Made by a program: the position numbers and the translations under genes
The notes under the pieces: generated by a model
Told to the model about the DNA's origin: nothing
Databases searched by the model: none
Seen by the model: only the letters and a program-made list of their open reading frames with translations
Origin: Fervidibacillus albus
Lineage (GTDB): Bacteria > Bacillota > Bacilli > Bacillales > Caldibacillaceae
Assembly: GCF_026547225.1 (NCBI RefSeq)
Contig: NZ_CP106878.1
Span: forward strand, 1-32,000
Direction of reading: 5' to 3'
Length of the DNA stretch: 32,000 nucleotides
Shown: positions 2,987 to 31,788 of the stretch, piece after piece
Numbering within the stretch: the stretch's first letter is position 1
How the letters are laid out: every line of letters starts with the position of its first letter

Positions 2987-3532
2987 ATGAGATACATTAT
3001 ACGTGGAGAAAACATTGAAGTAACTCCGGCTTTACGGGACTATACCGAAAAGAAGATTTCCAAGTTAGAAAAATATTTTACCGAAACTCCCGATGCAAAC
3101 GTATATGTCAATTTGAAAGTGTACCCGGATAAAAAAGCGAAAGTGGAAGTGACGATTCCGCTTAAGTATATTACGTTACGGGCAGAAGAAATGAATGAAG
3201 ATATGTATGCTGGCATCGATTTAATAACTGATAAATTGGAAAGACAAATTCGTAAACATAAAACGAAAATTAACCGGAAAGTTCGGGAAACGGGAATGAA
3301 AGATTTATTCGTCAACGGACCAACACTTACCGAACCGGAAAAGAAAGAAGAAGAAATTGAAATTGTTCGTGTAAAACGTTTTGATTTAAAACCGATGGAC
3401 AGTGAAGAAGCCGTCTTGCAAATGAACATGCTCGGTCACAACTTTTTCGTCTATACCGATGCCGAAACGAATTCGACGAACATCGTATACAAACGGAAAG
3501 ACGGAAAATACGGTCTGATTGAAACGAACTAA
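2987..3532 (+). CDS. hpf: ribosome hibernation promoting factor, long form (YvyD/HPF)
   Basis: 181 aa. The N-terminus MRYIIRGENIEVTPALRDYTEKKISKLEKYF is near-identical in pattern to B. subtilis YvyD. The C-terminal dimerisation region (FFVYTDAETN..IVYKRKDGKYGLIE) is present. RBS AAAGGAGGAG. Confidence 0.93.
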   Translation: MRYIIRGENIEVTPALRDYTEKKISKLEKYFTETPDANVYVNLKVYPDKKAKVEVTIPLKYITLRAEEMNEDMYAGIDLITDKLERQIRKHKTKINRKVRETGMKDLFVNGPTLTEPEKKEEEIEIVRVKRFDLKPMDSEEAVLQMNMLGHNFFVYTDAETNSTNIVYKRKDGKYGLIETN

Positions 3533-3548: not shown

Positions 3549-3582
3549 CCCCTGCGATCACTCATATCGCATGGGGTTTTTT
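3549..3582 (+). terminator. intrinsic terminator after hpf
   Basis: CCCCTGCGAT..ATCGCATGGGG forms a hairpin with one bulge, followed by TTTTTT. Confidence 0.7.
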
Positions 3583-3619
3583 ATTTTTGAATATAAAGAA
3601 GTATAAACGAAATTGTTTG

Positions 3620-3935
3620 AATCTGGGGATTTTCGTTAAAATTCGAGGGAATTTCGCGTTAATTCGAGGAAAATTTGTATGAATTCAAGGAAATTTCGAA
3701 TCAATTCGAGGAAAATTTGTATGAATTCAAGGAAATTCCGTGTCAATTTGAGGAAAATTAGCGTGAATTCGAGGAAATTCCGCGTTAATTTGAGGAAAAT
3801 TTGTATGAATTCGACGAAATTCCACAACAATTCAAAGAAAATTTGCATCAATTCGATTAAATTTTGCTTAAAACCGAGGAATTTCGACTTCAATTTGTAG
3901 AAATCTTGAGTAAACCCGAGAAAAATTCTGTAAAT
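3620..3935. repeat. tandem array of about 14 units of exactly 21 bp (consensus AATTCGAGGAAAWTTYSYRTN) with degenerate edge units
   Basis: Unit starts fall at 3640, 3661, 3682, 3703, 3724, 3745, 3766, 3787, 3808, 3829, 3850, 3871, 3892 and 3913, with no phase slip. Units 3661 and 3703 are identical. Alternating subtypes give a 42-bp higher-order repeat. Confidence 0.95.
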
Positions 3936-4054
3936 CCCCCGACTTCTGAAAAAATATTGTTATCATTACATAAAGGGATAAACTTTAGAAAATTTCCGAA
4001 TTCATCGGTAAACGGAAAATGAGTTGAAAATACAAATTCAAAGAGGTGAACACA

Positions 4055-5659
4055 ATGGACTTTTTACATTATCCATATCGTTCTCAACGGATGGCCACGT
4101 TTGCGAAAAAAGGAATGGTTGCCACATCCCAGTCACTTGCAGCCCAAGCCGGGTTGGACATTTTAAAAAAGGGAGGAAATGCCGTTGATGCTGCGATTGC
4201 TACAGCGGCTGCGTTAACGGTCGTTGAGCCTACTTCAAACGGGATCGGTGGAGATGCCTTTGCAATCGTTTGGATGAAAGATAAAATATACGGTTTAAAT
4301 AGTAGTGGCCCTTCGCCGAAAACAATATCGATCGAATCGGTAAAAAATCGGGGTTACGAACATATGCCGACCCATGGGATGATTCCTGTAACCGTTCCAG
4401 GAGTTCCAGCGGCGTGGGGAGCTTTAGCTGAACGATTTGGTAGACTCCCTCTAATCGAAAGTTTGCAACCGGCGATAACCTATGCACGGGAAGGATATCC
4501 AGTTAGCCCAACTTTAGGAAAATATTGGAATCTAGCGTATAAAAAATTTAAACAATTATTGAAAGGGGACGAATTTCGTTATTGGTTCGATACGTTTGCA
4601 CCGAACGGACGGGCTCCGAAAATCGGGGAATTATGGAACTCAGCTGATCATGCCAAAACGTTACAATCCATCGGCGAATCAAACGGTAAAAGTTTTTACA
4701 AAGGGGAACTAGCAGAAAAAATCGATGCATTTTTTAAAAAACATGAGGGGTTTTTAACAAAAGATGATTTGTCCGCTTTTAAACCGGAATGGGTGGAGCC
4801 AATCCGCACTAATTACAGAGGATACGACATTTGGGAAATCCCTCCGAACGGGCAAGGAATCGTCGCATTGATGGCACTATCAATTGTAAAAGGATTCGAT
4901 TTTTACGCAAAGGACGACATTGAAACGGTGCATAAACAAATTGAAGCGTTGAAACTGGCGATGACTGACGGAAAAGCGTATATTACCGATCCACACCATA
5001 TGGAAATCGCCATCGCTGAATTGTTATCGGAAAAATACGCTACGATGCAGAGGAAAAAAATTAAGGATACCGCTCTTATGCCACAACCGACAAATCTAGG
5101 GAAAAGTGGAACGGTTTATTTGGCAACTGCTGATGAAGAAGGGAATATGGTTTCGTATATTCAAAGCAACTATATGGGATTCGGTTCAGGGATTGTTGTT
5201 CCAGAAACGGGAATTGCGATGCAAAATCGGGGAGCGGACTTTTCCCTCGACCCGAATCACCCGAACGCTTTACAACCGGGAAAACGAACGTATCATACAA
5301 TCATCCCGGGATTTATAACGAAAGGGGAGGCTGCCATCGGTCCCTTTGGTGTGATGGGAGGATATATGCAACCTCAAGGCCATATGCAAGTCGTGATGAA
5401 CATGATTGATTTTCATTTGAATCCCCAAGCTGCCCTCGATGCACCCCGTTGGCAATGGATCGAAGGGAAACGAGTGATTGTCGAACCGGATTTTCCGAAC
5501 GATATTGCCCAAGGATTAGCGAGAAAGGGTCATGAAATTCAAATTTCTTTAGATCATGGTGCTTTCGGAAGGGGACAAATTATTTGGCGAGATCCAGAAA
5601 CCGGCGTACTAATGGGAGGAACGGAAAAACGAACGGACAGTGCCATCGCTTCATGGTAA
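4055..5659 (+). CDS. ggt: gamma-glutamyltransferase family protein without signal peptide (YwrD-like)
   Basis: 534 aa. GGT-family N-terminus (GMVATSQSLAAQAGLDILKKGGNAVDAAIATAAALTVVEPTSNGIGGD) and an autoprocessing/catalytic Thr context (GKSGTVYL). RBS AAGAGGTG lies 6 nt before ATG 4055, so the ORF-track GTG 4046 is probably too early. Confidence 0.88.
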   Translation: MDFLHYPYRSQRMATFAKKGMVATSQSLAAQAGLDILKKGGNAVDAAIATAAALTVVEPTSNGIGGDAFAIVWMKDKIYGLNSSGPSPKTISIESVKNRGYEHMPTHGMIPVTVPGVPAAWGALAERFGRLPLIESLQPAITYAREGYPVSPTLGKYWNLAYKKFKQLLKGDEFRYWFDTFAPNGRAPKIGELWNSADHAKTLQSIGESNGKSFYKGELAEKIDAFFKKHEGFLTKDDLSAFKPEWVEPIRTNYRGYDIWEIPPNGQGIVALMALSIVKGFDFYAKDDIETVHKQIEALKLAMTDGKAYITDPHHMEIAIAELLSEKYATMQRKKIKDTALMPQPTNLGKSGTVYLATADEEGNMVSYIQSNYMGFGSGIVVPETGIAMQNRGADFSLDPNHPNALQPGKRTYHTIIPGFITKGEAAIGPFGVMGGYMQPQGHMQVVMNMIDFHLNPQAALDAPRWQWIEGKRVIVEPDFPNDIAQGLARKGHEIQISLDHGAFGRGQIIWRDPETGVLMGGTEKRTDSAIASW

Positions 5660-13795: not shown

Positions 13796-14000
13796 GTGGG
13801 CCGAGGTTCCGGTTCTCTCAGCCCACTTTTTCGCTGGTGGGTCGAGGTTCCGGTTCTCTCAGCCCACTTTTTCGCTGGTGGGTCGAGGTTCCGGTTCTCT
13901 CGGCCCACTCCTCTCAGCCCACTCTCTCAGCCCACTTCATCCCAGTGGGTCAAAGGAACCGGAATCACGGCTCATTCCTTTGAATTCGAACCTCGACCAA
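13796..14000. repeat. cluster C of the GC-rich palindromic unit family: 3 x 41-bp tandem units in reverse orientation, partials, and one forward copy
   Basis: Reverse-orientation copies at 13796-13826, 13837-13867 and 13878-13908, each followed by TTTTTCGCTG (the first two) or by partial arms. Arm fragments at 13909-13935. A forward copy at 13945-13973. The first unit plus TTTTT probably terminates cccB. Confidence 0.85.
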
Positions 14001-28279: not shown

Positions 28280-28578
28280 GTGGGTCGAGGGTGGGTCGAG
28301 GGGACAGGAACCTTGACCCAGAACGAGCGAAAGTGTGCCAAGGGGACAGGAACTTTGAACCAGGATGAGCGAAAGTGTGCCAGGCCAAGGGGACAGGAAC
28401 CTTGACCCAGAACGAGCGAAAGTGTGCCAAGGGGACAGGAACCTTGACCCAGGATGAGCGAAAGTGGGCCAAGGGGACAGGAACCTTGACCCAGGATGAG
28501 CGAAAGTGGGCCAAGGGGACAGGAACCTTGACCCAGAATGAGCGAAAGTGGGCCAAAAGAACCGGAACCACGACCCAC
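28280..28578 (+). repeat. cluster E: 7 tandem copies (period 42 bp, one 47 bp) of the GC-rich palindromic unit plus the conserved linker RRAYGAGCGAAA
   Basis: Units at 28291-28320, 28333-28362, 28375-28409, 28422-28451, 28464-28493, 28506-28535 and 28548-28578, with a half-copy at 28280-28290. The array occupies almost the whole 337-bp copZ-copA spacer. Confidence 0.95.
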
Positions 28579-31418: not shown

Positions 31419-31788
31419 GTTTTGATCTTACCTATGAGGGATTGAAACTATAAATCTTCATTGCGTGTCTGTTATAATATTCATAACGTTTTGATCTTAC
31501 CTATGAGGGATTGAAACTCACCACCTCTTATCGTCAATTTTAATCTGTTCTTCGTTTTGATCTTACCTATGAGGGATTGAAACTGCGACGACATCTAGTT
31601 TGTCGCAGGTCGATGATAGTTTTGATCTTACCTATGAGGGATTGAAACACAAAAAAATTGCGCCCGATCACGCTCAATTGGACGAGTTTTGATCTTACCT
31701 TCCATTCCAGCCAATTGGCGTTGTTTTTTTGCTTTGTCTAGTAGATTATTTGCTTTAGTTTTTCTCCTACCTTTAAAGGGTTAGGAAC
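31419..31788 (+). CRISPR. small CRISPR array: 4 identical 30-bp repeats, 4 spacers, then a truncated and a degenerate terminal repeat
   Basis: The repeat GTTTTGATCTTACCTATGAGGGATTGAAAC occurs at 31419, 31488, 31554 and 31619. Spacers are 39, 36, 35 and 37 bp. The fifth repeat matches only over its first 15 nt (31686-31700). A degenerate repeat, GTTTTTCTCCTACCTTTAAAGGGTTAGGAAC, lies at 31758-31788. The ATTGAAAC 3' end is typical of type I/III repeats. Confidence 0.9.

Follow-up and report, generated by a model that had tools for sequence, protein, structure and literature searches.

A phased 21-bp repeat array between hpf and ggt of Fervidibacillus albus belongs to a lineage-specific repeat family associated with NERD nuclease genes

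The spacer between hpf and ggt of Fervidibacillus albus carries a non-coding array of phased 21-bp direct repeats, which is one of seven arrays with a common core in this genome and has counterparts, partly at the same loci, in Fervidibacillus halotolerans. The core of this array is also the core of the array abutting the gene of a NERD/Zn-ribbon/winged-helix protein, and across Bacillales genera the association between NERD (PF08378) genes and phased repeats exceeds that at control loci. No description of 21-bp arrays linked to NERD genes was found in the literature on 21-bp arrays, Fervidibacillus and the NERD domain, and we propose this pairing as new. Our preferred explanation, to which we assign a probability of roughly 0.5, is that the hpf-ggt array may be an orphan copy of a lineage-specific 21-bp phased repeat family providing docking sites for a NERD nuclease on curved DNA.

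Results

The phased array between hpf and ggt

The window, i.e., the whole stretch of DNA analysed here, comprises bases 1-32,000 of the 3.15-Mb single-contig genome of F. albus, a circular chromosome. Reading the phase across 3598-3975 identified 14 units of exactly 21 bp between 3640 and 3933, starting at 3640, 3661 and so on to 3913 without any indel. Tandem Repeats Finder (TRF) reported a period of 42 bp at 3640-3863 (5.3 copies, 83% matches, 0% indels, score 273) as well as a period of 21 bp at 3640-3895 (12.2 copies, 69% matches, no indels). The period-42 call confirms that two subtypes alternate and give the array a higher order of 42 bp. An earlier sequence-only reading of the window had described the slip-free phasing and the alternation, and both hold, the latter over the first 224 bp. 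The same reading had proposed decay towards both edges, which is true of the 3' edge (units from 3850 on), whereas the 5' edge is sharp. The neighbours that it named, hpf and ggt, were confirmed by Pfam (Table 1). In the well-kept units the core reads AATTC-R-N-G-G-AAA and contains a TTC-N3-GAA dyad between A/T tracts.

The surroundings of the array are shared with close relatives. The terminator hairpin of hpf is kept in F. halotolerans (NZ_CP106877.1) and in the Logan contig L169 (run SRR28496335), and the left junction TTTGAATCTGGGGA is identical or nearly so in both, placing the insertion point at the same site in three genomes. Elsewhere in the window, 41-42-bp tandem clusters at 13796-13909 and 28291-28577 belong to a second, GC-rich palindromic family (GTGGGCCAAG...GACCCA) that also occurs at many other sites of the genome.

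Table 1. Features of the hpf-ggt region, family arrays and the NERD gene on the F. albus chromosome.
Feature	Position	Strand	Evidence
hpf (ribosome hibernation factor), upstream neighbour	2987..3532	+	Pfam PF02482 and PF16321, E 1e-28
Intrinsic terminator of hpf, 6-bp stem and T run	3553..3581	+	Terminator scan, hairpin at 3553-3571
Conserved left junction TTTGAATCTGGGGA (3616-3629), directly 5' of the first unit	3616..3639	+	
Well-kept part of the array, 10.7 units, two alternating subtypes (42-bp higher order)	3640..3863	+	TRF, phase listing, logo
Decayed units 11.7-14, 21-bp phase kept	3864..3933	+	Phase listing
Right flank common to both species, contains TGTTATCAT (3958-3966)	3934..3967	+	Sequence comparison
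ggt (gamma-glutamyltranspeptidase), downstream neighbour	4055..5659	+	Pfam PF01019, E 1e-153
Array 1 (window array)	3640-3935		
Array 2	97,940-98,400		
Array 3	2,279,445-2,279,700		
Array 4	2,281,959-2,282,978		
Array 5	3,036,817-3,037,866		
Array 6 (decayed)	3,054,302-3,054,643		
Array 7	3,061,143-3,062,187		
NERD gene	3,060,030-3,061,040 (320-aa gene at 3,060,030-3,060,992, minus strand)		

A family of arrays in the two Fervidibacillus species

The array served as a BLAST query against the F. albus genome, and family members were also sought by whole-genome TRF and with the core AATTCGAGGAAA, allowing up to two mismatches. Further arrays exist in both genomes, seven arrays with a common core being present in F. 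albus (Table 1) and six in F. halotolerans, where they reach 1.7 kb (approximately 80 units), and all of them are intergenic. Comparison of flanking genes identified four loci that are syntenic in both species, namely hpf-ggt and the loci at a transketolase gene, a gene of 793 aa and an alcohol-dehydrogenase-like gene, while a uvrB array is found in F. albus only and an array at 2.405 Mb in F. halotolerans only, so that arrays were gained or lost at two of about eight loci. Both flanks of the hpf-ggt array are conserved in F. halotolerans, where about 30 units with different cores (GGGTAAA, AGGGAAA) stand between them, and this shift from the GAGGAAA of F. albus to GGGTAAA/AGGGAAA is genome-wide. 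In contig L169, of which hpf is 99.5% identical in DNA to that of F. albus, only about three units are present (727-901 region), and the 120 bases following them match nothing in the F. albus genome. The unit number at hpf-ggt is therefore variable among relatives, with about 3, 14 and about 30 units in three close genomes, a ten-fold range of length. Higher-order repeats within arrays indicate ongoing block duplication, the duplicated blocks including segments that are out of register, and decayed arrays exist as well, e.g., downstream of phoU. A global pattern scan of genome contigs returned F. halotolerans and scattered single matches in unrelated phyla; this exact-pattern scan missed genome G015, although G015 has three consecutive units matching the pattern.

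In F. albus, a gene pair encoding a SulP permease and a universal stress protein (Usp) is located between two direct 21-bp arrays (2,279,445-2,282,978), while F. halotolerans has a single array at this place and a SulP gene was not found in its genome, a difference that resembles cassette insertion or deletion by array-to-array recombination. At 3,036,817-3,039,504 of F. albus, an array and a GC-rich hairpin (REP-like) element together form a 354-bp higher-order repeat, directly upstream of a DUF2397 (PF09660) gene, which could be part of a defence operon of the Wadjet (SMC) type. The repeat-rich region 3,047,610-3,053,987 of F. albus holds two paralogous genes for cell-wall-anchored 5'-nucleotidase-like proteins of 1309 and 641 aa, and the larger of the two genes is, in F. 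halotolerans, flanked by two 21-bp arrays.

Conserved core, free spacer and predicted curvature

The unit of the family consists of a core of about 12 bp, AATTC-R-N-G-K-AAA, and about nine free bases. A logo over 326 units gave A1 A2 T3 T4 C5 R6 n7 G8 k9 A10 A11 A12, followed by T, A or C and almost never G, and then by about eight positions with almost no information. To compare core and spacer in unselected units, each base was set against the base 21 positions further on and labelled by phase; across 13 arrays this lag-21 identity reached 68% at core positions but only 33% at those of the spacer, the latter being about the chance level for the composition. Neighbouring units thus share their core and their spacing but not their spacer, an iteron-like pattern that would not be expected from slippage alone. 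The sequence-only reading had compared the geometry to that of iterons, with a fixed spacing of two helical turns and cores on one face of the helix, and the conserved core with its free spacer agrees with this.

The steps AA, AT and TT cluster at unit positions 0-2 and 9-13, and A/T tracts recurring about every 10.5 bp, as in helically phased A-tract DNA, predict strong curvature. In silico, three dinucleotide wedge models, parameterised from the literature, predicted the window array to be more curved than all of 1,500 random 126-bp windows of the F. albus genome. Under the Bolshoy-Trifonov and De Santis models, the predicted curvature also exceeded that of at least 99.7% of column-permuted arrays, a control that keeps both repeat structure and composition. 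Over 168 bp of the array the predicted ratio of end-to-end distance to contour length was 0.38-0.53.

Association of phased repeats with NERD genes in Bacillales

In both Fervidibacillus species the largest array is found 100-240 bp upstream of a NERD gene of about 320 aa. This main copy of the family has 50-80 units and abuts the promoter of the NERD gene; in F. albus it is a 1-kb AATTCGAGGAAA array, and the gene that it precedes is the only NERD gene of about 320 aa in the genome. An adjacency of NERD gene and array was predicted beforehand for other genera and held in two genomes of two other families, G015 (array at 1,250,583-1,250,978, NERD domain at 1,251,573) and G190 (array at 2,708,719-2,708,828, NERD gene at 2,708,945-2,709,874), both with AATTCnnGnAAA cores.

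Full-length NERD homologues are present in 229 of 301 sampled Bacillales genomes, often as several paralogues (9-11 per genome in some). We examined the 30 best NERD loci, of which 28 lie outside Fervidibacillus, for TRF repeats with a period of 19-22 bp or a multiple thereof. Repeats with a period of 20 or 21 bp or a multiple were present at 20 of the 28 loci from other genera, related genomes among these not being independent samples, compared to 8 of 38 hpf loci and none of 30 loci of the accessory nuclease family Mrr_cat under the same TRF criteria (Fisher p of 5e-5 and 2e-9, respectively, with no correction for phylogeny). Among the 30 NERD loci, 19 carried repeats in the 400 bp preceding the gene, mostly 25-180 bp from the start codon, while 8 carried them downstream and 5 on both sides. 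A period of 21 bp was modal in all sets (18 of 28 NERD loci, 6 of 38 control loci). Since 21-bp repeats also occur at 8 of the 38 hpf control loci, not every array needs a NERD protein. As a separate observation, 21 bp is by far the commonest minisatellite period in the 10-35 bp range in intergenic DNA of Bacillales, even at control loci (seen in the NERD and control loci L071-L168), and at several hpf loci of other genera 21-bp repeats of unrelated sequence are found less than 500 bp from hpf.

The cores are shared as well. Many upstream NERD arrays from different families have GCCGATATAT-like cores, the Fervidibacillus core read towards the NERD gene is TTTCCTCGAATTC, and upstream of NERD genes there is a 3.3-fold enrichment of the degenerate element CGAWWW, which mostly faces the gene and has a modal spacing of 21. 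Orphan arrays share the NERD-linked core in genome G013 and in a sister genus (G007), where TTTTCNGGAA occurs at 21-bp spacing 173 times as compared to 0 in a reversed control, 151 of the 173 two-unit matches being on one strand. The G007 matches listed include at least nine arrays within about 300 kb (C5:237,517-527,876), a region that also holds the NERD gene and hpf. Furthermore, a NERD homologue is present in 39 of 41 genomes with AATTC-type arrays versus 190 of 260 others (one-sided p of about 0.001, calculated by hand and with no correction for phylogeny). The NERD protein family is essentially chromosomal, as it was found on 1 of 72,556 plasmids and 0 of 50,697 phages.

Some observations speak against a strict pairing. 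The orientation of the array relative to the NERD gene is not fixed, that of G007 being inverted compared to Fervidibacillus; genomes with 9-11 NERD paralogues show few arrays of any one core; and in genus g79 (core AATTCRACCAC) NERD adjacency was absent among the places listed. Nevertheless, the association of NERD genes with phased repeats across Bacillales genera exceeds that of the controls.

The NERD protein

NERD is a large domain family for which, to our knowledge, almost no biochemistry is available; B. subtilis, used as a search control, has no NERD protein. An AlphaFold2 model built on an alignment of eight sequences (mean pLDDT 87.5) predicts a helical region at the N-terminus, a nuclease core of mixed alpha/beta structure, a C4 zinc ribbon and, at the C-terminus, a winged helix with its elements in canonical order (alpha1 258-269, beta1, alpha2 276-283, alpha3 288-297, beta2, beta3). 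Foldseek matches of the model to the PDB were weak (E above 1e-3), and nearly all of the top-ranked ones were nucleases of the restriction-endonuclease fold, with the R2 endonuclease domain, VC1899, Bax1, Can2/Card1 and Hjc at the top. A PDB sequence search, PADLOC and PHROGS gave no informative match for the protein. In 30 homologues drawn from many families, E62, D95, E108, K110 and four cysteines do not vary. The predicted PD-(D/E)xK active site is thus intact, and these invariant residues, together with the matches to restriction-endonuclease-fold nucleases, suggest that the protein is likely an active enzyme.

The orthologues of the two Fervidibacillus species differ at 60 of 320 positions (19%). 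In a segment chosen in advance, consisting of a loop and the predicted recognition helix alpha3, 8 of 14 residues differ (p 0.0015), and this divergence of the putative recognition helix parallels the genome-wide change of the core between the species. Across the 30 homologues, no pattern was seen that would correspond to a simple code linking alpha3 residues to cores.

Discussion

Proposed docking sites for a NERD protein or a minisatellite

We infer that each core would be a candidate docking site for the NERD/zinc-ribbon/winged-helix protein, and that an array would present a row of such sites two turns apart on one face of intrinsically curved DNA, where they might be coated cooperatively. 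Orphan arrays could arise by short-range spread from the nuclease locus, and the window array, filling the presumably untranscribed spacer between the terminator of hpf and the predicted promoter of ggt, would then affect ggt, if at all, as a side effect.

The main rival explanation is a neutral or selfish minisatellite that has no protein partner and is sustained by slippage and unequal crossing-over, with the adjacency to NERD genes arising from operators of another regulator or from long spacers. This would account well for the labile copy number at hpf-ggt, for the gain or loss of arrays such as those at uvrB and 2.405 Mb, for the block duplication and decay of arrays, and for 21 bp being the modal minisatellite period even at control loci. 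However, slippage homogenises all positions alike, whereas the spacers are at chance level and the cores are kept across arrays, loci and species. In addition, the presence of the array together with both flanks at hpf-ggt is common to the two species, and such repeats are lacking at the Mrr_cat loci, although these also encode an accessory nuclease family. A minisatellite thus fits the copy number but neither the contrast between core and spacer nor the association with NERD genes, and we regard it as unlikely, although it is the alternative to be taken most seriously.

A further possibility, offered tentatively, extends the docking of NERD proteins at the cores to a partnership resembling that of RAYT and REP, in which the nuclease would recognise the core and keep or spread arrays near its own gene, and direct pairs of arrays would serve as recombination sites for cassettes, the SulP-Usp pair being an example. 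If real, such a partnership would also account for the dominance of the 21-bp period among the minisatellites of Bacillales.

Relation of the array to ggt

The sequence-only reading had considered the array as an extended operator of ggt. The 3' end of the array is situated about 25 bp before TGTTATCAT, a conserved element resembling an extended -10 and predicted as such for ggt, the ATG of which (4055) follows AAAGAGGTG by 7 nt; the consensus promoter scan did not list TGTTATCAT at 3958-3966 among its elements. An upstream element of curved DNA or an operator, evolved to control the transcription of ggt, would be in agreement with this position, with the exceptional predicted curvature of the array, and with the NERD-linked array likewise ending just upstream of the promoter region of its gene. 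In three other genera of the family (G002, G004 and G007), however, hpf is directly followed by ggt across a spacer of 230-520 bp in which no 21-bp periodicity was found, indicating that the hpf-ggt spacer is older than the array, which was acquired in the Fervidibacillus lineage; in four genomes of three further genera (G005, G006, G008 and G010) hpf is followed by secA. Moreover, one array of the family sits between convergent genes, where no promoter is expected, and the length of the array varies ten-fold among close relatives. The sequence-only reading had pointed to an Lrp/AsnC-type gene of B. subtilis and noted that the window has no such gene; none is nearby, and no Lrp/AsnC, partition or Rep gene was found near the window array, which together with the array-free hpf-ggt spacers speaks against a wrapped operator of the Lrp/AsnC type. 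Since the array is one member of a dispersed family, is missing from three genera with the same gene order and is reduced to about three units in a nearly identical strain, its length is not conserved and it is, as judged from these comparisons, not an ancestral or finely tuned operator of ggt. A role evolved for the control of ggt is accordingly improbable.

Chromosomal position and orientation

As judged from GC skew and dnaA, oriC maps to 2.797 Mb in F. albus and 2.594 Mb in F. halotolerans. In both species, all arrays are located within about 520 kb of oriC with the core on the leading strand. These observations could point to a chromosome-organising or centromere-like system (cf. RacA/ram and ParB/parS) that marks the origin-proximal third in one orientation to replication. 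Fervidibacillus follows this rule, but G015 and G190 do not: arrays with similar cores (AATTCTTGAAAA and AATTCCTGAAAA) are found there on both strands and at distances from the origin of up to 25-28% of the chromosome. No par genes are adjacent to arrays. When distances are counted from the NERD gene, F. albus has arrays at -24, -7, 0, +93 (window array), +187 and -780 kb, and F. halotolerans has them at 0, +29, +34, +93, -96 and about 760 kb; the 93 kb between NERD gene and window array run across the coordinate start of the circular chromosome. Four of the five orphan loci of F. albus are thus within 190 kb of the NERD gene, and arrays cluster around this gene in G007 as well. The array positions fit clustering around the NERD gene better than the origin rule, and a chromosome-organising role is very doubtful.

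Coding, RNA and other readings

The two open frames described by the sequence-only reading, 3679..3900 on the + strand (73 aa) and 3636..3893 on the - strand (85 aa), are present, and a GAGGA is found 8 nt before an ATG in subtype-A units; however, no frame is open in the other 12 arrays, the sister arrays of 1.1-1.9 kb having 6-30 stops in each frame and an occasional unit of 20 bp breaking the reading frame. RNA folding of either strand against shuffled sequence gave no significant fold (z of -0.6 and -1.1) and Rfam had no match at the window array. A basic (+) heptad peptide, a hydrophobic (-) one or a structured RNA therefore has a negligible probability, and the coding options are refuted at the level of the family. 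The non-coding nature that the same reading favoured is supported by the stops in the sister arrays and by the position between a terminator and a promoter-like element. Its interpretation therefore stands where it called the array non-coding and iteron-like, and falls where it considered a ggt operator or a peptide. For annotation, the consequence is that an open frame within an array of this kind should not be entered as a gene.

Three further candidates were tried and rejected. Regarding GAATTC as an EcoRI-type site, its depletion outside the arrays is mild (observed to expected ratio 0.79, similar to that of other palindromes), and only 66 of 1,244 GAATTC sites are in arrays. A CsrA sponge or Shine-Dalgarno decoy, as suggested by GGA/GAGGA in the core, does not agree with the GGGTAAA of F. 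halotolerans and the unrelated cores of other genera. Finally, the known Bacillus motifs of CodY, Spo0A, Noc and the sigma-B -10 element matched only partially, and the matches are not kept between the two species.

Significance and comparison with known systems

If the arrays are recognition sites of NERD proteins, hundreds of orphan nuclease genes would gain a defined DNA substrate that can be tested by gel shift. Such recognition would also explain the otherwise puzzling excess of 21-bp tandem repeats in intergenic DNA of Bacillales and would open an approach to typing loci that vary in copy number, such as dru. Cassette insertion and deletion, as well as strongly curved DNA beside promoters, might then have a hitherto unrecognised origin.

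Among known repeat systems, CRISPR has repeats of 21-48 bp and spacers of similar or greater length, unlike the 12-bp core and 9-bp spacer of the arrays, and Rfam matched only the real CRISPR repeats of the window, i.e., four repeats on the - strand at 31419-31648 that match CRISPR-DR2 with 45.7 bits each. The partition sites parC (R1, pSK41) and sopC (F) are likewise phased direct repeats, which are coated cooperatively by a small protein on curved or wrapped DNA; in contrast, the arrays described here are lineage-specific, labile in length and present many times per chromosome, and no parA, parM, parR or sopB was found near them when the ORFs at all seven F. albus arrays were inspected and Pfam was run on the flanking genes. 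The dru repeats of the SCCmec hypervariable region, with units of 40 bp, are non-coding and strain-variable and have no established function (PMC3636274). When compared by behaviour only, dru and STAR of Staphylococcus resemble the arrays as non-coding direct repeats of variable copy number in Bacillales, whereas the period of 21 or 42 bp and the core are different here.

The iterons bound by Rep proteins (F, P1, pPS10, R6K) are closer in geometry, being direct repeats of about 20 bp that are two turns apart, lie upstream of the promoter of a winged-helix gene and have a conserved spacing with variable bases between the sites. Unlike iterons, the arrays are chromosomal, occur at many loci with up to 80 units, are associated with a protein of nuclease fold rather than Rep, and are accompanied by neither DnaA boxes nor an AT-rich unwinding region. 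The window array has hpf and ggt as neighbours, and the eight densest clusters of DnaA boxes in F. albus are all at 2.797-2.958 Mb (the top two at 2,796,804 and 2,938,210), none of them at an array, which differs from a plasmid origin.

The REP/RAYT system of proteobacteria (REPINs) differs in that its repeats are hairpin palindromes and its partner is a Y1 HUH transposase, whereas the arrays are 21-bp tandem direct repeats with free spacers that form no significant fold, the partner candidate is a PD-(D/E)xK NERD (PF08378) protein with a winged helix, and four arrays are syntenic between species. Both nevertheless consist of short, intergenic, dispersed and lineage-specific repeats of which most copies are gene-less, while one resident gene is flanked by its own repeats, and it was this flanking by own repeats through which the partnership of RAYT and REP was recognised.
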